Below are positions 2,936 through 17,093 of a stretch of DNA of 19,489 nt, piece by piece. The notes under the pieces were generated by a model. That model searched no databases. It worked only from the letters and a program-made list of their open reading frames with translations, and was not told the origin of the DNA. Positions within the stretch are counted from its first letter, which is position 1. Each line of letters starts with the position of its first letter. The stretch comes from Armatimonadota bacterium (GTDB lineage Bacteria > Armatimonadota > Armatimonadia > Armatimonadales > Armatimonadaceae), in the NCBI GenBank assembly GCA_043754515.1, contig JAYUUO010000010.1, positions 1-19,489 of the forward strand, in the 5' to 3' direction. The position numbers and the translations under genes were made by a program.

Positions 2936-3559
2936 ATGACCGACTTCATCCCTACCGACTTTCTTATTACCATGCCCCTCGCGCGACTCCCGTCCGCCGC
3001 CATCTTCGACTGCGACGGGACGCTCATTGATACGATGCCCCTCCATTATGTCGCGTGGCGCAAGACGCTCGACGATCTGGGGCTTGCGCGCGTGTTCCCG
3101 GAAGCGCAGTTCTACGAGTGGGGAGGGACACCCGCGAAGGAGATCATCGAGCGTCTGAACGCGCAACACGGTTTGACGCTGGACGCGCACCCGCTCGCGA
3201 ACCGGAAGGAAGAACAGTACCACCTGCTGATCTCCGACGTTCAAATCGTCGCGCATGTTGTCGAGGAGGCCCGCCGCCTGAACAAAGCCGGGGTACCGCT
3301 CGCGGTCGCCTCCGGCGGGCGGCGGGATGTCGTGGAAGCCTCGCTCGTGAACGTCGGAATCCGCGACCTGTTCGGGCCGATAGTCGGCTCCGAGGACGTA
3401 CCGAATGGCAAGCCCGCCCCGGACGTATTTCTGCGAGCAGCGGAACTGCTCGGCGTCGTGGCGGCGGACTGCGTCGTCTTCGAGGACGCACCCGCGGGGA
3501 TACTGGCGGCGTACCGCGCCGGAATGCGGGTGGTAGACGTCACAAAGTCCGCGAAGTGA
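2936..3559 (+). CDS. HAD-superfamily phosphatase (beta-phosphoglucomutase/YqaB/CbbY-like)
   Basis: Motif I FDCDGTLIDT, motif II VASGG, GKPAPDVF, motif IV VFEDAPAGI.AA..AGM. Confidence 0.92.
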   Translation: MTDFIPTDFLITMPLARLPSAAIFDCDGTLIDTMPLHYVAWRKTLDDLGLARVFPEAQFYEWGGTPAKEIIERLNAQHGLTLDAHPLANRKEEQYHLLISDVQIVAHVVEEARRLNKAGVPLAVASGGRRDVVEASLVNVGIRDLFGPIVGSEDVPNGKPAPDVFLRAAELLGVVAADCVVFEDAPAGILAAYRAGMRVVDVTKSAK

Positions 3560-5030
3560 ACTCGCCCGCAATCCGGGCTATGTCACCGTGCAAAGCGCGG
3601 TCGGCGCGGAGCGGTTCGAACGGCGGGAGGTCGGGCGGGGGAAGGGCGACGCGCTCCGTCGCCTTACCGTCGCGGCGCAGGAAGTCAAGTTGGGCGGCTG
3701 ACATGTGGAGCACGGCGAGGATGGCGGCGAGCCGGTCGGTCTGCCGGTAGGCGGTCTGGGCGGCGAGGGTCGCCATCGGCACCACGTCCTGATTGTCGGC
3801 GTTGGTCGGGATCGAGGAGGTCGCGAACTGCTGGCACGCCCCGCGCATTTCGGCGAGAAGCGCGGTCGCGGTGAGTTGCGCCCCGGCGAGTCCGCTGTCC
3901 CGGCCCGGCTCATAAGCGAGCAGGAGCGGCGCGAATTCGTTGTGACGCGACGGCGTGCAGAGCAGGGCTATCTGCCGCTCGGCTAGCACGGCTACCTGGG
4001 TCAGCGCGGCGTTCAGCGTGTCGGCGGCGAACCCAACCGCCTGCCCGTGGAAGTTGCCGCCGTGTAGAACGCGGTCGGTGAAAAAGACCGGGTTGTCGTC
4101 CACCCCGTTGATCTCGGTCTCGATCACGGCGCGGGCGTACGATATGTTCTGTCGGCACGCGCCCAGAATCTGCGGGGCGCACCGGAGCGAGTACACTTCC
4201 TGAAGGGGCCGCGAGACGTCCTCGTACTCCCCATGTCGCTCCGCCTCCTCGCGAATGTGCCGCGCGCTTTCGATCTGCCCCGCGTGCCGCCGGACCTGAT
4301 GCAACCGGTCATCGAGCGCGGCGGCGCGGCAACCGAGTAGCCGATAGAGCCAGCCGGTGAGCGTCTCCGAAAGGGCGAGAAGTCGTGCCGCGCGAGACAC
4401 GGCGAGCGCGGCGTAGGCACTCAGAAAGGAGGTGCCGTTGACGAGTGCTAACGCCTCGCGCCCGGAGAGTGTTCGCGGCTTCAAATCGGCACGCCTTAAA
4501 CACTCCGATGCCGAAAGCCGCTCCCCGTCATAAAACGCTTCCCCCTCGCCCATGAGAACACGGGCGATGTGCGCAAGCGGAACCAGATCGCCGGACGCGC
4601 CGACGGAGCCGGACTCCGGCACGAACGGTACGATGCCCGACCGGAGCAGGGCGGCGTAAGCATGAGCGATGCCGCTCTCGACCCCCGAGTGCCCGCGCCC
4701 CAGCGTGTGAAGCCGCAGATACAGAGTCGCGCGAACGACTTCCAGCGGTGCCGCCGCGCCGTACCCTGCGGCGAGGTGCGCGATGAGCGAGGCTCCGAGT
4801 TGCGCGTCGCCCCCGACCTCCGTTACCACATGGGGTCCGAACCCAGTCGTGGTCCCGTAGATCGGCGTGCCCGCATCCTGCTGGCGCAAATAGTCGGCAT
4901 GTGAGGCGTCCATGCTTTCGGCGGTCGCTTCATTCAGGTAGATGTTCGGATAGTCGCGTGTCGCTACCTGCTGGACTGTTTCGGACACCAGGTCGGTGAA
5001 GGTGCCGATGTTATTGGATTCGGGGGGCAT
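3540..5030 (-). CDS. MIO-dependent aromatic amino acid ammonia-lyase, probably tyrosine ammonia-lyase (TAL)
   Basis: IYGTTTGFG, MIO-forming GSVGASGDLVPLA, REALALVNGTS, LQEVYSLRCAPQ, DDNP, HGGNFHG, TNADNQDVV. Start placed at ATG 5030 (MPPES) because the longer ORF overlaps the upstream gene. Overlaps the convergent HAD gene by 20 bp. Confidence 0.9.
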   Translation of the reverse strand: MPPESNNIGTFTDLVSETVQQVATRDYPNIYLNEATAESMDASHADYLRQQDAGTPIYGTTTGFGPHVVTEVGGDAQLGASLIAHLAAGYGAAAPLEVVRATLYLRLHTLGRGHSGVESGIAHAYAALLRSGIVPFVPESGSVGASGDLVPLAHIARVLMGEGEAFYDGERLSASECLRRADLKPRTLSGREALALVNGTSFLSAYAALAVSRAARLLALSETLTGWLYRLLGCRAAALDDRLHQVRRHAGQIESARHIREEAERHGEYEDVSRPLQEVYSLRCAPQILGACRQNISYARAVIETEINGVDDNPVFFTDRVLHGGNFHGQAVGFAADTLNAALTQVAVLAERQIALLCTPSRHNEFAPLLLAYEPGRDSGLAGAQLTATALLAEMRGACQQFATSSIPTNADNQDVVPMATLAAQTAYRQTDRLAAILAVLHMSAAQLDFLRRDGKATERVALPPPDLPPFEPLRADRALHGDIARIAGEFTSRTL

Positions 5031-5082
5031 TTGCCCGTGATTATACCGCCCCACCCGGCCCGACCCAATGCCACTTCCCGGC

Positions 5083-5745
5083 CTACCCCGCTTCGTAAGC
5101 CTCCCAGAGCGCGGAAGTGAATGCCGTCGCTCCATATCGGTTCGGTATCGGCGAGAGGTCGGCACCCGCGCATAGATACAACTCCTGGTTCGGAGGCGAA
5201 GCGTCCGCGGTAAGCGGGTCACCGGCTCTGGCACCGTGCCCAGCGAACGCCGGGCACACATCGGCGACGGCGGCACCGTGAACTGCGGCTAGCGTGCGCA
5301 GTGTTTCATTATAGCGGGCGACACCCTCGGCGAGATCGGCTTCCTTGCCGTCCATCGGGTCGTAAAGCGTAGGGAGCAGAATCTCGGCACGAAGGGAGAC
5401 CACGCGGAGCGAGGCCAGCACCGCGCCCCCATGTTTGCATAGCTCCGCGCACACCGCCTTCGAATCACCGAACGCTAGCCGGGACAGCTCGCTCGCTCCG
5501 ATTGTCATGGTAATGAGTGACGGAGCGGCGTTTATTTCGAGCAGTCGGGGAAGTTGTACGTAGCGCACCGTCGCCGCCGTCGCGCCGTCCGTCGCCAGCG
5601 CGATCATCTTCCAGGACGGGTCCCCGGCGACCAATCGCTCATAGAAACCGCTCGCCGCGCCCATATATCCGCTACCGTTACGACTCCGCGCGTCGCCGAG
5701 TGAGACGTAATAACGATTAACGGGGGCTATCGGGAGCGGGCGCAT
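5083..5745 (-). CDS. SGNH/GDSL hydrolase-fold protein with degenerate catalytic residues
   Basis: YVSLGDARS (block I), LATDGAT (block II), TMTIGASEL (block III), TLYDP.DG, YNE.LR.LA..HGA.VADV...F.GHG, PNRYGA (block V). Confidence 0.75.
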   Translation of the reverse strand: MRPLPIAPVNRYYVSLGDARSRNGSGYMGAASGFYERLVAGDPSWKMIALATDGATAATVRYVQLPRLLEINAAPSLITMTIGASELSRLAFGDSKAVCAELCKHGGAVLASLRVVSLRAEILLPTLYDPMDGKEADLAEGVARYNETLRTLAAVHGAAVADVCPAFAGHGARAGDPLTADASPPNQELYLCAGADLSPIPNRYGATAFTSALWEAYEAG

Positions 5746-9201: not shown

Positions 9202-10605
9202 CTACTTCGTCACTTCGCGCACATCCACGAGTCGGCCCGCGATAGCCGCCGCCGCCGCCATCACGGGCGAGACGAGGTGCGTGCGCCCGCCCTTTCCCTG
9301 GCGCCCCTCGAAGTTGCGGTTCGACGTGGATGCGCAACGCTCGCCGGGTTGCAATATATCCGGGTTCATGCCCAGACACATCGAGCAACCGGGTTCGCGC
9401 CACTCGAAACCGGCGGACAGGAACACCTTATCCAGTCCCTCCTCCTCGGCCTGACGCTTCACCGGGTAGGAGCCGGGGACACACAACGCGCGTAGTCCCG
9501 CCTTTACTTTTTTGCCCGCCAGTATCGCCGCCGCCGCACGCAAGTCCTCGATGCGGCCATTCGTGCAGGAACCGATGAACACCGTATCCAGCACGATGTC
9601 GGTGATCCTTTGCCCCGGCGTCAATCCCATATATTCCAGTGCTCGCTCTACGGAGCGTCGGTCGGCGGGGTCGGCGTATTCGGACGGGTGCGGTACCGAG
9701 CCTGTTATCGGGGCGACCTGTCCGGGCGAGGTCCCCCAGGAGACGTGCGGCGCGATCTCGTCGGCGTGGAGTGCGATCTGTGTGTCGAAGGTCGCGCCCT
9801 CGTCGGTACGCAGGCCTTCCCATGCCGCGATGGCCTCGTCCCAAGCCGCGCCCGTCGGGATATGGGGACGGCCCGCGAGGTACGCCCACGTCTTCTCGTC
9901 CGGCGCGATCATCCCCGCCCGTGCCCCGGCCTCAATGCTCATGTTGCACACCGTCATGCGCCCCTCCATCGAAAGAGCGCGAATCACCTCGCCCGCGTAT
10001 TCGACTACGTAGCCGGTCGCGCCGTCGGTACCGATCTTGCCGATGATGGCGAGAATGACATCTTTCGCGGTCACGCCCGGCCCGAGTTTGCCGTCCACCG
10101 TGATGCGCATTGTTTTGGGAAGTGACTGCGGCAGACACTGCGTGGCGAGCACATGCTCCACCTCCGACGTCCCGATGCCGAAGGCGAGCGCGCCGAACGC
10201 GCCGTGCGTGGAGGTATGGGAGTCGCCGCAGACGATGGTCATCCCCGGTTGCGTCAGGCCGAGTTCCGGCCCGATCACATGTACGATCCCCTGCTTGGGG
10301 GAATGGATGTCGTAGAGCGTGATGCCGAACTCGCGGCAGTTACTTGCTAGCGTCTCCATCTGGAGACGGGAGATGTCATCCGCGATCGGCAGGGAGCGGC
10401 TGGTCGTCGGGACGTTGTGATCCATCGTCGCGACGGTCCGCGCCGGGCGGCGCACGGCACGGTCGGTGAGGCGTAATCCCTCGAACGCTTGCGGCGAGGT
10501 GACTTCATGAACCAGATGTAGGTCTATATACAGGAGCGCGGGCTGTCCGGCCTCCTCGCGAACGAGATGGGCGTGCCATATCTTCTCAAACAGCGTCTTC
10601 GGCAT
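9202..10605 (-). CDS. leuC: 3-isopropylmalate dehydratase large subunit
   Basis: [75 protein letters not shown]. Confidence 0.97.
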
Positions 10606-10779: not shown

Positions 10780-12180
10780 CTATCGCGCCGCCGCGACGGT
10801 GATTACCGAACAACCCATCGCGGAAGATACTTCCCTAACGGACGCGGCGGCTCGCCTCAGGAGCGGCGCGGGCGCGAACTCCCCGCCTCGTGCCACCGTG
10901 AGCAGTTCGTTCACGGAGCGGCCTGCATTGGGATATACGGCGACGCCGACGCACGCGACAAACTCCTCGCCCTCGGCGGCACCACAGGCGATCAGAATAT
11001 CTTCGAGGCGGGTAGCCGTCTCCCGCGCCTGCGTGTCATTTTGTTGCGGCATGAACAGGACGAAGTCGTCGGGCCGTCCGTCCACTCTTCCCGCCACATC
11101 CACTTTGCGGATCGCCGCGCTTACGGTTTGCCCGATCCGGTGGAGGAGTGCCTCGCGGCGCAACCCGCGTTCCGGCACCCCCCCCAGCGAGATGTAAAGT
11201 AGCGCGCACTCTCGGTTTTCCCGCGCCGACCGTGCCAAAGCCTCCCCGAAGCGCGCGGTCGCGTATGATGGGGCTAGTAGCCCGGTGCTAGGACAGGTGA
11301 GGGTGGAGGGGGCGGACTGGGCGCGGGTGCGATCCCGCACCTCCGCGTCGCCCATAATGCGCTTAAGTTTCCCAGTGGCGTTCTTGAGGATGTGCGACAC
11401 GTAGTTGCAGGAGATGCCGAACTGTTTGGCGATCTCGGTCTGGCTGTGGTCTTGGTAAAAGAACTCGAACAGCACCTTCTGCTCCAACTCCTTAAGCTTC
11501 AGCACCGCGTTCTCCAGCACGATCCGATCTTCTATCGGCAATTGCAACGTGACGTACTTGTCCGATCGTATCTTCTCCGGGTCAACGAGACCGATGGTAG
11601 CGTCGCCGTCCTCGGCCGCCGACCCAAAGGCGGAGACCTGGAAGGTCTGGCGAGTCGAGATTATCTCGTCAACCGCCTCCTCCGTCAGGTTTAGGACACG
11701 CGCGACTTCCTCCGTCTGTGGGGCGCGACCGAGTTCCACGGTGAGCGCGTCGGTAGTGCGCGATATCTTGACGGAGATCTCATGGAGCCACGCCGGCTCC
11801 TTGATTATCTTGCCCCTGTCTCGGAGGAAGTGACGGATGGCACCGGCGACGAAGTGGGTGGCATAGGTGCTAAACTTGATCTTCCGTTGCGGCTCTTTTT
11901 GCGCAGTGCGCTCCGGGTCGTAGTGGTCGAGCGCGGACAGGAGGCCCAGGAAGCCTTCCTGCACTAGATCCTCGAACGGCTCGCCCGAGCCGACGAAGCG
12001 ACGCGCGATGGATTCGACGAGGGGTGTGTGGTAGTGGGCGATCTTTGCTTTCAGTTCGGATAGGGTCGGGGTCGCTGTCGGCGCGGCTTCGCCGCGATGC
12101 CGCGCGACATACTCACACAGGCACGCAGTGACCTGTAACTCGTTCCGTTCACCCGATAATACGCTGGTTTTTGAAGACAT
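10780..12180 (-). CDS. SigB/SigF/SigG-type sigma-70 factor fused to a C-terminal degenerate GGDEF-like domain
   Basis: Region 2 (LVESIARRF...EPFEDLVQEGFLGL..A.D.YDP...KFSTYA....GAIRHFLRD), region 3 (ELGRAP..EEVA), region 4 HTH (SQTEIAKQFGISCNYVSHIL), then TCPSTGL...ALLYISL...IRKVDVAGRVDGRPDDFVLFMP...CVGVAVYP. Start at ATG 12180 or GTG 12219. Confidence 0.85.
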   Translation of the reverse strand: MSSKTSVLSGERNELQVTACLCEYVARHRGEAAPTATPTLSELKAKIAHYHTPLVESIARRFVGSGEPFEDLVQEGFLGLLSALDHYDPERTAQKEPQRKIKFSTYATHFVAGAIRHFLRDRGKIIKEPAWLHEISVKISRTTDALTVELGRAPQTEEVARVLNLTEEAVDEIISTRQTFQVSAFGSAAEDGDATIGLVDPEKIRSDKYVTLQLPIEDRIVLENAVLKLKELEQKVLFEFFYQDHSQTEIAKQFGISCNYVSHILKNATGKLKRIMGDAEVRDRTRAQSAPSTLTCPSTGLLAPSYATARFGEALARSARENRECALLYISLGGVPERGLRREALLHRIGQTVSAAIRKVDVAGRVDGRPDDFVLFMPQQNDTQARETATRLEDILIACGAAEGEEFVACVGVAVYPNAGRSVNELLTVARGGEFAPAPLLRRAAASVREVSSAMGCSVITVAAAR

Positions 12181-12248
12181 AATCTCTCGTGTTTCCTTGG
12201 CGCGTAGCCCGCGCGGCACGCGTCACTTCCTACTCAACCCAATGCCCT

Positions 12249-12266: not shown

Positions 12267-12322
12267 CACCCACGGAGATTATCGGAAATAATAACTTTTT
12301 TTGCATGGCTGAATAGGACCCA

Positions 12323-12339: not shown

Positions 12340-12478
12340 AATTACCTGGTACCGTATTGTCATGCCCGGCGCGGCGTAGTTCCCTGATGAGTGGGAGCCT
12401 ATCTACCGAAAATATCGTGGCGGTAACCCGCCGCCTCGGCGGGGTGCGGCCCGTACCGGCTTGAAGGAGAATGTTTAG

Positions 12479-13789
12479 ATGAACCCGGCTTCCCTTATAT
12501 CTGATGATGATCTGGTTCTGTTACCGACGAGCGGGCGCCCGCGCGTCCCCGGCCTGACGGGGAATGGCAGTGTCGCGCCCGCCGTCTCGTCGGACGACGC
12601 CCAACTCCTGCGGGGGCTTCTGGAGGACGGGCCGCTCCCCACGCCCAAAGTCGGCGGTGCCTCCCGCCCCGCGCAGGGGTCCGGGTTCGGGCTCGATGAC
12701 ATGGAGGAAGTACGCTCCCTCCCTCTGAGCGAGACGCACATAGACGACATTCTACGCGTTAGTCAGCAACTCAAATCTTCGGACATACACATCACCGTGG
12801 ATCTGCCGCCGATGTACCGCATTGACGGAAAACTTACCCCCTCGAAATGGGAACTGGTAACGCAACGGGAGGCGCAACGTATCGTCTATGACATCCTCAC
12901 CTCGGATCAGATCGAGCGGTTCGAGCGCACCAAGGAGTTAGACTTCTCGTACGGCGTCGCGAACGTAGGGCGGTTCCGCTTCAACGTGTATCGTCAGAAG
13001 GGGAACGTCGGCTTCGCGATGCGCGCCATCCCGGCGACCATTCCTTCTATTGACCAGTTGCGACTCCCCTCCATCCTGAAAGAGCTGACCCGGAAGCACT
13101 CCGGCCTGATCCTCGTCACGGGCCCGACCGGCTCCGGGAAGTCCACCACCATCGCCTCAATGATTGATGTGATCAACTCGGAGAAGTCAATTCACATCAT
13201 GACGATGGAGGACCCCATCGAGTATCTGCACAGCCATAAAAAATCGATGGTGAATCAGCGCGAAATAGGGCAGGATACCGAAGGGTTTCACAACGCGATG
13301 CGCGCCGTCCTGCGCGAGGATCCAGACGTCATCCTGGTCGGCGAGATGCGCGACAAGGAAACCATCGCGGCCGCGCTCACGCTGGCGGAGACCGGACACC
13401 TAGTCTTCGGCACGCTCCATACACGGAACGCCCCACAGACGATTGACCGCGTCGTGGATGTCTTTCCGCCGGATCAGCAGGATCAGATCAAGGTGCAGTT
13501 GTCTAACTCGCTCGAAGCGGTGGTCGCGCAACAGCTCCTGCCGATGCTCGGCGGCGGGCGCATCGCCGCGATCGAGATTATGATCGCGACATCCGCGATT
13601 CGGAACCTGATCCGCGAGGGGAAATCGTACCAGATCACCTCCTCCATCGAGACCGGGGCGCAGTACGGGATGCAACCGATGGATAAGGTGCTCGCCGACA
13701 TGCAGAAAGCCGGCATGATCTCGTATGACGAAGCGATCACACGCGCGATTGACCGCGACAACTTCCTGCGTCTGTCTAAGGGCATATAG
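12479..13789 (+). CDS. pilT: Type IV pilus retraction ATPase PilT with an N-terminal extension
   Basis: SDIH, GRFRFNVYRQ, Walker A GPTGSGKST, EDPIEY, REDPDVILVGEMRD, AETGHLVFGTLHT, PilT signature AIRNLIRE; RBS GAAGGAG. Confidence 0.93.
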   Translation: MNPASLISDDDLVLLPTSGRPRVPGLTGNGSVAPAVSSDDAQLLRGLLEDGPLPTPKVGGASRPAQGSGFGLDDMEEVRSLPLSETHIDDILRVSQQLKSSDIHITVDLPPMYRIDGKLTPSKWELVTQREAQRIVYDILTSDQIERFERTKELDFSYGVANVGRFRFNVYRQKGNVGFAMRAIPATIPSIDQLRLPSILKELTRKHSGLILVTGPTGSGKSTTIASMIDVINSEKSIHIMTMEDPIEYLHSHKKSMVNQREIGQDTEGFHNAMRAVLREDPDVILVGEMRDKETIAAALTLAETGHLVFGTLHTRNAPQTIDRVVDVFPPDQQDQIKVQLSNSLEAVVAQQLLPMLGGGRIAAIEIMIATSAIRNLIREGKSYQITSSIETGAQYGMQPMDKVLADMQKAGMISYDEAITRAIDRDNFLRLSKGI

Positions 13790-13899: not shown

Positions 13900-15108
13900 A
13901 TGGCTACATTTACTTACGAGGCGATTGATTCTATAGGGCGGCAGGTCAAATCCTCTATCGAGGCGGAGACGGAGCAACAGGTACTCTCTAAACTGCGCGA
14001 GCAGAAATTCAGCATTCTGTCGGTTCAGGAACGCAAGAGTAACGTCTTCAGCATGAAAGCGACCTACGGCGGCCCAAAACTGGTGAGCATCGTCGTCTTC
14101 TCGCGGCAGTTCGCAACCATGATTGACGCCGGTATTCCGGTGTCGAAATGCCTGGATATTCTCGAAGCGCAGACGAAAGACGTGCCGCTCAAGAACGCGG
14201 TGAACCAGGTGCGCAAGGATATCAAGGCGGGGTCGAACCTGGGTGACGCTCTGGGGAAACATCCGTCCTGTTTCAGCCGCCTGTATGTGAACATGATCAA
14301 GGCGGCGGAGATCGGCGGTATCCTGGATAACATACTGGACCGTTTGGCTACCTTTCTGGAGAAGGAGATGGAGATCAAGCAGAAGATTACCGCCGCGATG
14401 ATCTACCCGATCATCGTCCTCATTTTCTCCGTGCTGATGATTTTCGCCCTGTTCGCCTTCGTCCTGCCGCGCTTCAAAGAGATATTCCAGGACATCAAGG
14501 TGGAGTTGCCGGTCACCACCCAGGTGATGTTTAGCATTTCGGACTGGATCGTCCACGTCGGCTGGTTCGCGATCCCCGCGATCAGCGTCGCTACCTTCCT
14601 TGCGTTCCGCCAGTACTATAAGACGCCGGGCGGTCGTATGCAGTTGGACATGGTAAAACTGAAGTTCCCGCTCATCGGCGACATGGTCTTGAAGATGTCC
14701 GTCTCACGCTTCTCCCGTACTTTCGGGGTGCTAATCGCGGCGGGCGTGCCGATGATGCGCGCGATGGAAATCATCGGCGAGACGGCGGGGAACGCGGTGC
14801 TGACGAAGGCGATCAACGATGCCCGCTCTGCCATCCGGGACGGGCAACGTATCTCCACCCCGCTCGCCGCCTCCGGCCTGTTCCCGCTCATGGTGACGCA
14901 CATGATTGACATCGGCGAGGAGACCGGGCGGCTGTCGGAAATGCTGACCAAAGTCGCCGACTTCTACGACAAGGAAGTAGACGCGCAGGTCAAGGGATTG
15001 ACGAGTATTATCGAGCCGATGTTGATCGTTTTTATGGGCGTCATCGTCGGGTTCATCGCCATCTCCATCATGGGGCCGATGTTCAAACTAGTGTCGTCTA
15101 TCAACTAG
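13900..15108 (+). CDS. pilC: Type IV pilus platform protein PilC (T2SS F family)
   Basis: MATFTYEA, FSRQFATMIDAG, YVNMIKAAEIGG.L, AMIYP, GEETGRL..ML.KVADFY, IEP; transmembrane segments. Confidence 0.93.
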   Translation: MATFTYEAIDSIGRQVKSSIEAETEQQVLSKLREQKFSILSVQERKSNVFSMKATYGGPKLVSIVVFSRQFATMIDAGIPVSKCLDILEAQTKDVPLKNAVNQVRKDIKAGSNLGDALGKHPSCFSRLYVNMIKAAEIGGILDNILDRLATFLEKEMEIKQKITAAMIYPIIVLIFSVLMIFALFAFVLPRFKEIFQDIKVELPVTTQVMFSISDWIVHVGWFAIPAISVATFLAFRQYYKTPGGRMQLDMVKLKFPLIGDMVLKMSVSRFSRTFGVLIAAGVPMMRAMEIIGETAGNAVLTKAINDARSAIRDGQRISTPLAASGLFPLMVTHMIDIGEETGRLSEMLTKVADFYDKEVDAQVKGLTSIIEPMLIVFMGVIVGFIAISIMGPMFKLVSSIN

Positions 15109-15233: not shown

Positions 15234-15323
15234 TGTGAACGGGTAATGGCGCGGGTATCATCGTAGTGGCACGCAACAAAACGTTCCCATACTCATAGTC
15301 CGCTTTTGCTGGGAGTTGCCTTG

Positions 15324-16199
15324 ATGTTCAGACCAGAAAAAAAAATTACGAAGGCTTTCCCCCTCCTCGGGGCACGCTCGGGGCTCACTATCCTCGGTGC
15401 TTTTGCCGTCCTTATATCCCTCCTTGCTGGTTGCGGCGGGTCGGGCGGGGGCACACCTGTGGCGACTCCGACGCCAACCCCTACGCCTGTCGCGCCCCCG
15501 ACTCCGGTGCCGCCCGCGGCCGGTAGCGCGCTGGATCGCACGATGCGGTCGAACTTCTCCCCGAATTACATCCCGAGCGACGCGAGCCGGTATCTGCGCT
15601 GGGCGGACAACAAAAAACTGCGCGTATTTATTCACGCGGGAGTCAACAACATCAAGGATAATGTCCCGGCACCGACGTTACCGGATGACGCCGTCCGCGC
15701 CCTCGTTCGCCAATCGCTCGACCTGTGGACGGCGCAGACCGGGGGAGATTTCCTTTTCACGCTGGTGGACGACGTGGCGAACTCAGACATCGAGATCTAT
15801 TTCGTGACCGATGTTCGCCGTCTGAACGGCACGACTTCCAGCGGTCTGGGCGTGACCAACTACTCGTTCTTTTACCCGGATGTAACCGACACGGCGCACG
15901 CGGTATTGAAAAAATCGGTCATTCAGGTGAGGGCGGATCAGAGTGCCGATGGACTCCTGGACGTCACTGCCCACGAATTCGGCCACGCGCTCGGAATCGA
16001 AAAGCACAGTCTGGATGATAATGACCTGATGTTCGCGACGAGCATCCCCCCGGCCGCGATTACCCAGCGCGACCAGAACACGCTCTTTTACCTGTACTAC
16101 TCGCCGACTGCACTCGGCGGTGCCTCGAAAGCGGCGCGTGGTCGGCACGGGGTGTATATCAGTGAGCTAATATGCGGTGACCGGACGCGGGGACACTAG
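15324..16199 (+). CDS. Lipoprotein matrixin-like (M10/metzincin) metalloprotease
   Basis: Signal with lipobox LLAGC, Pro/Thr linker TPTPTPTPVAPPTP, zinc motif HEFGHALGIEKH, Met-turn DLMF; RBS GGGAG before ATG 15324. Confidence 0.85.
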   Translation: MFRPEKKITKAFPLLGARSGLTILGAFAVLISLLAGCGGSGGGTPVATPTPTPTPVAPPTPVPPAAGSALDRTMRSNFSPNYIPSDASRYLRWADNKKLRVFIHAGVNNIKDNVPAPTLPDDAVRALVRQSLDLWTAQTGGDFLFTLVDDVANSDIEIYFVTDVRRLNGTTSSGLGVTNYSFFYPDVTDTAHAVLKKSVIQVRADQSADGLLDVTAHEFGHALGIEKHSLDDNDLMFATSIPPAAITQRDQNTLFYLYYSPTALGGASKAARGRHGVYISELICGDRTRGH

Positions 16200-16370
16200 T
16201 GTCGGCGGAGTCGGTACTTCTCCGTGCCGATTTCTCCTCCAGAAAACGCGAGCATTGACCGATAATGATGAGGTAAACATAAGTATGCCGTGGATTATTC
16301 ATTTCGCCTTTCTTGCTCCGTCAGGGTAGTTCGTGCACATATTCTAAGATCGCTCAACGAGGTTATTCAA

Positions 16371-17093
16371 TTGATCGCACGCAAATTGTTCCCGAGTTCG
16401 TTCGCGTCGGCACCGCGCCGTTCCGTAATCGCATCCGCTGTCGCCGTCAGCCTTCTACTGGCGGGGTGTGGGGGCGGTGCCACTGGCGGGTCTTCCGCGC
16501 CCGTGGCATCCGATAGCCGCGCGTCTTTACCCGACGCCGTCTCCCGGTCGTTCGCTCCGAACTACGATTCACGGATTGAGTCGCACGGGATCTGGCGCGG
16601 CAGGACGCTCCGCGTCTTCTTTCCAGGGGACGCCGATGCCGCGGTGGGTTCCGCCGCCCTAACGCGCTGGGAGGAGGCGACCGGCGGGTTCTTCCACTGG
16701 GAGCGCGCCCCGACGTCCGACACCGCGCAAGTCTCCTTTAATCTGGTCGGGACGGACACCTTCGAGCCGGGCGTGGTCGGCAAGACGCATTACGCGTACG
16801 ACGCGTCTAAGAACGAGTTGACGAGTGCCGATGTGCGGATAGCCCGGTCTGGCCCTGTCTCGGATCAGGTCGCGACCGCCGTTCACGAGCTCGGCCATGC
16901 TTTGGGTATTCACGGCCACAGCGATGCTACCTCGGATATGATGTTCGCCTCGCTCACCTCGCAGAGCGTAATCACGGAGCGGGACTTGAATACGTTATTT
17001 TACCTGTACCGCGATTCCGAGTCCGGCGTAGTAACTCCAGGACGCGCCGTGCACATGATCAACGTCACGATCGAATGCGGCGCGTCCCGGTAG
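16371..17093 (+). CDS. Second lipoprotein matrixin-like metalloprotease (paralog)
   Basis: Lipobox LLAGC, HELGHALGIHGHS, DMMF, IT.RD.NTLFYLY shared with the first copy; start placed at TTG 16371 after RBS GAGGT (ORF track starts at 16290). Confidence 0.85.
   Translation: MIARKLFPSSFASAPRRSVIASAVAVSLLLAGCGGGATGGSSAPVASDSRASLPDAVSRSFAPNYDSRIESHGIWRGRTLRVFFPGDADAAVGSAALTRWEEATGGFFHWERAPTSDTAQVSFNLVGTDTFEPGVVGKTHYAYDASKNELTSADVRIARSGPVSDQVATAVHELGHALGIHGHSDATSDMMFASLTSQSVITERDLNTLFYLYRDSESGVVTPGRAVHMINVTIECGASR

Follow-up and report, generated by a model that had tools for sequence, protein, structure and literature searches.

Here, we report that a gene of an Armatimonadota bacterium encodes a group-3 sigma factor joined to a catalytically dead GGDEF domain. 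We consider it moderately likely that this fusion is a phylum-wide, one-component c-di-GMP-sensing sigma factor, which works without an anti-sigma and ranks second in a cascade that leads from WhiG to the fusion and controls type IV pili. The gene is located in a stretch of 19,489 nucleotides (assembly GCA_043754515.1, contig JAYUUO010000010.1), all of which was analysed and is called the window here. The parts of the gene are as follows.

10780..12180, minus strand: sigma factor-degenerate GGDEF fusion gene, 466 aa from the ATG at 12180
11809..12036, minus strand: sigma region 2, aa 49-124 (Pfam PF04542)
11644..11772, minus strand: sigma region 3, aa 137-179 (Pfam PF04539)
11362..11499, minus strand: sigma region 4, aa 228-273 (Pfam PF04545)
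11317..11409, minus strand: predicted continuous helix, aa 258-288, leading from region 4.2 into the GGDEF domain (AlphaFold2 model)
10858..11307, minus strand: degenerate GGDEF domain, aa 292-441 (Pfam PF00990 and a fold match with Z 18.3)

An alternative GTG start at 12219 gives a 479-aa fusion protein (ORF reading). Regions 2, 3, and 4 are present and region 1.1 is absent (Pfam and model), and the Pfam GGDEF match (aa 344-430; 29 bits vs a cut-off of 23.8) lies in the same frame as the sigma regions. An earlier reading of this DNA from its letters (the sequence-only reading) had described a complete sigma factor running in frame into a GGDEF-like domain, which Pfam bears out, all in one frame. 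The AlphaFold2 model, computed on a 117-row alignment, has a mean pLDDT of 83.7 and a pTM of 0.47, i.e., it is reliable for each domain but not for how the domains are placed relative to each other; the connecting helix (258-288) also has low confidence at its last residues. Model residues 292-441 match solved GGDEF domains with Z up to 18.3 (rmsd 2.7 Å, 147 residues), so the C-terminal region, as modelled, adopts the fold proposed for it; the PleD match has a Z of 16.6, and solved GGDEF domains were matched by profile as well (E 3e-31). With the whole model, Foldseek returned sigma factors only, among the matches listed, and the GGDEF domain was resolved by a wider search. A co-fold in which residues 225-436 were supplied twice along with four c-di-GMP molecules, run with no control complexes, scored 0.00 and speaks neither for nor against the model. 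A frameshift or an assembly or sequencing artefact is ruled out, since full-length sigma-GGDEF fusions make up 117 of the 120 best homologs.

The fusion is spread through most of the phylum. A profile match at E <= 1e-60 was present, nearly always singly, in 218 of 301 Armatimonadota genomes, a count that takes in f31, a family with 18 listed genomes; the two of these that were examined carry a sigma-only ortholog with no GGDEF remnant. The organism-labelled loci among 80 taken from GTDB are all from Armatimonadota, and three Atlas clusters scoring 0.98 are commonest in this phylum. A quick tree of 161 sigma domains places every fusion in a single clade (SH-aLRT 98), away from the canonical SigB paralogs; the f31 sigma-only proteins are nested within this clade, which we read as secondary loss of the domain. 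These orthologs (L092 and L093) end in a lysine/arginine-rich tail and are natural controls lacking the sensor domain. A decaying fusion copy was considered for the GGDEF-free genome G079 and rejected, as the protein there is an intact 280-aa sigma factor without the domain. The sister group of the fusions comprises 24 unfused sigma factors (P0196, P0210, P0212, P0216, P0218, and others), one cluster of which is labelled Actinomycetota; it is a possible source of the sigma part of the fusion.

The assignment of the sigma part to the SigB/F/G type, made from the letters, needs qualification. The SigB/F/G models are its best NCBIfam matches and the likeness stands, but every cut-off is missed (156.1 bits vs 234.35 for TIGR02980), and the fusion branches in a clade of its own. 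Its regions 2.4 and 4.2 read IRHFLRDRGKIIKEPAW and ISCNYVSH, whereas the SigB paralogs of the genome have IKRYFRDK and ISQMHVSR. The FliA/WhiG model TIGR02479 gives the fusion 84.1 vs 189.6 bits, also below the cut-off. The lack of an adjoining anti-sigma or anti-anti-sigma gene, noticed before, was upheld: a Pfam scan of 19 window ORFs found neither (0/19) and no RsiG anti-sigma next to the fusion gene, and neither class recurs as a neighbour of the fusion in the 80 loci. The canonical SigB paralog on C213 of the same genome does have an adjacent partner gene. Three small RsbW-like HATPase_c_2 proteins are encoded elsewhere in the genome, one of them beside canonical SigB, and because of these an anti-sigma may still act on the fusion in trans.

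The genomic surroundings point to type IV pili. The divergent neighbours of the fusion gene in the window are two pilus genes, and this linkage, together with the promoter pair described below, is new here and absent from the earlier reading.

12479..13789, plus strand: pilT-like T2SSE ATPase, divergent neighbour (Pfam PF00437)
13900..15108, plus strand: pilC-like T2SSF platform protein (Pfam PF00482)

Across the 80 loci, pilC adjoins the fusion in 45 (39 co-oriented, six divergent) and is absent from the flank in 25, the remaining 10 having too little flank. The fusion closes a pilO-pilP-secretin-pilB-pilT-pilC run in most loci, and in the family of the source genome it stands head-to-head with pilT-pilC instead, indicating that the pilus linkage survived rearrangement. 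PilB of the source genome (L235:7253-8980, G000:C63) has an MshEN-like motif at its N-terminus; in the pilM-pilN-pilO-secretin-pilB run on C63, a GCCGATAAT element is present upstream of pilM. Behind pilC in the window are two tandem matrixin-like (Peptidase_M10) genes (15306-16199 and 16290-17093), a pair also present in L009 and L137, and a good match to the WhiG-type motif (16238-16266) precedes the second. Other window neighbours are ordinary, i.e., tRNA-Pro(GGG) at 1679-1754, an aromatic amino acid lyase gene at 3540-5276, and a LeuC-type aconitase-family gene at 9202-10605.

Alignment of the intergenic regions revealed a bipartite motif, TG(A/C/G)(A/G)GA-N15-CCGA(A/C/T)AAT, in two back-to-back copies, one directed toward pilT and the other toward the fusion.

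12278..12305, minus strand: candidate FliA/WhiG-type promoter toward the fusion, TGCAAA-N14-CCGATAAT, conserved within the family's intergenic sequences
12385..12413, plus strand: candidate FliA/WhiG-type promoter toward pilT-pilC, TGATGA-N15-CCGAAAAT, top genome-wide match (22.9 bits)

The promoter matrix was built from the fusion family with the window and three near-duplicate loci left out, and it found 61 sites of at least 15 bits genome-wide, vs 24 and 28 in shuffles. The phylum's flagellin genes carry TAAAG with the same -10 as the promoter pair, and this -10 part resembles the flagellar consensus GCCGATAA (consensus as given in PMC8325347). A FliA/WhiG sigma is encoded on C36 of the source genome (240.5 bits, over the TIGR02479 cut-off), with a PAS-GGDEF-HD-GYP gene directly behind it (the pair at G000:C36:36080-39430, L149). 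FliA/WhiG is present in 12 of the 13 other genomes of the source's family and flagellin in two; the source genome and the other 11 gave no flagellin match, so a flagellar role in this family was rejected. Exact motif matches occur in 27/37 genomes with both sigmas (18/27 outside the training family), in 6/11 with FliA/WhiG only, and in 0/13 with the fusion only; the last count disfavours the motif as one that the fusion itself reads, bearing in mind that specificity may differ between families. Four of nine genomes with neither sigma also have exact matches (seven sites, all overlapping long open frames), and several matches in fusion-less genomes overlap open frames. In G012, a 98% complete genome in which no fusion was found, the motif still stands ahead of pilT and of a pilB that bears MshEN. 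It is likely that a non-flagellar FliA/WhiG sigma reads the back-to-back motif, and from this reading it follows that the fusion is probably the second tier of a pilus cascade. As a separate observation, an rpoN (sigma54) gene has a match of 19 bits to the WhiG-type motif immediately in front of it (G000:C22:13562, L153).

A phylum-wide search for a shared motif upstream of the fusion gene brought up only coding k-mers of pilC. In eight genomes of two families, the element CATCTCA-N16/17-TGGAATAA stands ahead of the pilin gene located after the fusion (L199, L200, L201, L206, and L259-L262), and G187 and G032 have four copies of it apiece. The source genome gave no match to it, and beyond the two families it was not found before 26 other homolog loci except for two weak matches. 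Judged from these sequences, the element is a candidate for the fusion's own promoter, rather doubtfully so, and its -10 could be an extended housekeeping element.

The GGDEF domain has lost what a cyclase needs and kept what binds the product.

11062..11082, minus strand: degenerate A-site loop DGRPDDF, replacing GG(D/E)EF (sequence)
11098..11109, minus strand: RKVD, primary I-site RxxD (R358 and D361), invariant in 117/117
11221..11232, minus strand: R317 and R320, corresponding to secondary I-site arginines of cyclases (PleD R313, DgcR R163), 117/117
11008..11010, minus strand: R391, equivalent of PleD R390 and DgcR R237, 105/117

The motifs quoted in the sequence-only reading are in place, i.e., CPSTGL (296), ISLG (330), and DGRPDDF (367), and RKVD (358-361) does sit five residues ahead of the degenerate A-site. 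For comparison, 33 intact cyclase domains (the 29 best Pfam matches in the phylum plus four from the source genome) were aligned to the 117-fusion alignment; P0002 (self) and three truncated hits had been dropped from the 120 homologs. A second set of 75 divergent representatives consists of the 80 minus five that do not span the GGDEF domain. Of the residues invariant in the 33 cyclases, the metal Asp is kept in 18/117 fusions; F, K, N, and D of FKxxND in 1, 1, 0, and 1 of 117; the His in 0/117; and the first G, second G, and E of the A-site in 33, 16, and 16 of 117. The fusion domain studied here misses GG(D/E)EF, the metal-binding Asp, and the guanine-binding Asn of active cyclases, and the two G(D/E)EF string matches among the divergent representatives are both outside the A-site.

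In contrast, R310, E313, R317, R320, R358, and D361 are each present in all 117 fusions, vs 22, 11, 21, 25, 31, and 31 of the 33 intact cyclases. Among the divergent representatives, RxxD is found in 69, R317 in 70, and R391 in 69, with all four residues together in 62 (individually, the RxxD pair and the R390 equivalent are kept in 69, 73, and 69 of 75); R320 is found in 55/75, and R365, universal in active cyclases, in 54/75. In a profile alignment, R358/D361 fall on DgcR R206/D209, R391 on R237, and R320 on R163, while R317 corresponds to PleD R313 by counting from the wide-turn Asp within the profile-alignment ranges. DgcR R163 is the arginine of the second subunit in the c-di-GMP cross-link, as described in the available part of 10.1101/2020.08.28.271692. 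The RxxD motif alone is weak evidence, since it is the ancestral state carried by 31/33 intact cyclases (a share biased upward by the choice of top-scoring domains); it is the contrast between catalytic loss and an I-site kept more strictly than in cyclases that is the evidence.

The distribution of other GGDEF proteins was compared in 58 selected genomes (20 of the 83 without a match, seven of f31, and 31 with the fusion); as the genomes are related, these co-occurrence counts are not independent. Genomes with the fusion have a median of 10 GGDEF matches and a minimum of four (n = 31), those without it a median of two, with three or fewer in 15/20, and the f31 sigma-only genomes two each (7/7). 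Within families, the counts with the fusion and after its loss are 5 vs 1, 7 vs 1, and 8 vs 0 (the last genome 80% complete), and 35, 13, 14, and 15 vs 14, 0, 1, and 2. The source genome itself has four intact cyclase motifs. Both the secondary I-site arginines and this co-occurrence with GGDEF-rich genomes strengthen the receptor reading. The computational case for c-di-GMP sensing is strong, and from the residue pattern we consider it likely that the domain binds c-di-GMP. The one-component c-di-GMP-responsive sigma factor proposed earlier is thus upheld in part: the fold, the conserved RxxD, and the lack of an adjacent anti-sigma speak for it, while the RxxD spacing turned out to be ancestral and the trans-acting anti-sigma mentioned above would weaken it.

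By analogy with known systems, we suggest the following mechanism. The non-flagellar FliA/WhiG sigma would transcribe the fusion gene and pilT-pilC from the back-to-back promoters, and at low c-di-GMP the fusion would transcribe pilus or surface genes. At high levels, c-di-GMP may act most simply as it does in PleD and DgcR, bridging the primary site of one GGDEF domain to the secondary arginine of a second domain, and the cross-linked dimer would keep the sigma away from RNA polymerase and out of the pool, which we liken to the action of c-di-GMP on WhiG through RsiG. That c-di-GMP holds the sigma off by cross-linking two GGDEF domains is a tentative proposal, nearly as plausible as not, and the off-direction, i.e., inhibition rather than activation, is uncertain.

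It is unlikely that c-di-GMP at the I-site instead switches the sigma on, e.g., by lifting the GGDEF domain off region 4 via the helix, so that attachment genes are on when c-di-GMP is high. The same residue pattern would serve, and in the model the helix leads directly from region 4.2 into the GGDEF domain; however, the arginines of the secondary site, being invariant, suggest that two molecules are cross-linked, and sigma factors load onto polymerase as single chains. The f31 sigma-only orthologs keep regions 2.4 and 4.2, which fits a sigma factor that works free of the domain, yet this does not separate on from off. The PilB described above is another point for activation. In the MshEN class c-di-GMP promotes pilus extension (PMC8325347, in the part available), and the cultured Fimbriimonas is non-motile, its pili being thought to serve attachment (PMC4072686, main text).

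It is improbable, too, that the GGDEF domain senses no c-di-GMP and has a role in structure or protein interaction (as an anti-sigma built into the protein, or as a site where cyclases dock) or binds another dinucleotide, with the I-site kept for that purpose. Folding or contacts with proteins can be reason enough to retain arginines, RxxD is ancestral, and 6/75 divergent representatives lack RxxD and yet keep the domain. One such representative was traced and is 92% identical to the second copy in genome G071 of family f18, where the fusion is duplicated (L255 and L258) and the pilC-linked copy has the full I-site set; the copy akin to the RxxD-less protein sits just before a pilin gene cluster. 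Two genomes, G012 (14 matches) and G010 (13), are GGDEF-rich although no fusion was found in them. Against these points, the kept set is exactly that of the ligand contacts and fold residues, more strictly held than in active cyclases, and within families the genomes that lost the domain or the gene tend to be poor in GGDEF matches. The least likely reading is that binding leaves the activity of the sigma directly unchanged and, after the manner of SgmT and PopA, tethers it to some partner or location or targets it for proteolysis: R310 and E313 are invariant beyond the known ligand contacts and could be a partner surface, but no conserved neighbours other than pilus genes were found in the 80 loci, and the domain itself retains the two arginines of the secondary site.

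Among the ECF groups, there are known sigma factors that carry regulatory extensions of other kinds at the C-terminus. A published description of a sigma-GGDEF fusion was not found in open-access PMC and bioRxiv, supplements aside, and the main text of the Fimbriimonas genome paper, in its available part, leaves GGDEF unmentioned (PMC4072686); the fusion apparently consists of known parts in a new architecture, undescribed in print. If our reading is true, a sigma factor with its own receptor would link the second messenger to the choice of promoter in a new way, one that most of a little-studied phylum has conserved, and it would offer a compact part for c-di-GMP-dependent expression.

Among known systems, SigB, SigF, and SigG, including cyanobacterial SigF, are closest to the sigma part by NCBIfam match, and the SigB-like SigF of Synechocystis transcribes pilA1 (PMC2532724, in the part available). 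The fusion differs from them in staying below their cut-offs, in its own clade, in its residues of regions 2.4 and 4.2, in having no adjacent partner-switching genes, and in the added C-terminal GGDEF domain. PleD, DgcR, and WspR share with the fusion all primary and secondary I-site residues and the helix into the wide turn, whereas the fusion lacks the catalytic residues and has a sigma factor in place of the input domain. The receptors PopA, PelD, and SgmT likewise combine a GGDEF fold with a dead A-site and a kept RxxD, and SgmT carries the degenerate GGDEF as a C-terminal module on a regulator (PMC3509222 and PMC12564702, in the parts available); in contrast, the output domain of the fusion is a complete sigma factor, and its c-di-GMP binding is predicted. 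A 2025 effector review lists PopA and PelD as GGDEF receptors and, in its available part, no sigma factor effector (PMC12564702). The nearest parallel in function is WhiG-RsiG, where c-di-GMP controls a group-3 sigma in the (RsiG)2-(c-di-GMP)2-WhiG complex of Rubrobacter and Streptomyces and, in Rubrobacter, genes for type IV pili and for DGC/PDE enzymes come under the switch by way of TAAA/GCCGATAA promoters; according to the available text, no other sigma/anti-sigma complex is known to be a target of c-di-GMP, and the word GGDEF is absent (PMC8325347). For the fusion such control is predicted. There, the sensor is a separate anti-sigma acting on WhiG; here, the sensor is fused to a SigB-like sigma, above which a WhiG-type sigma appears to sit.
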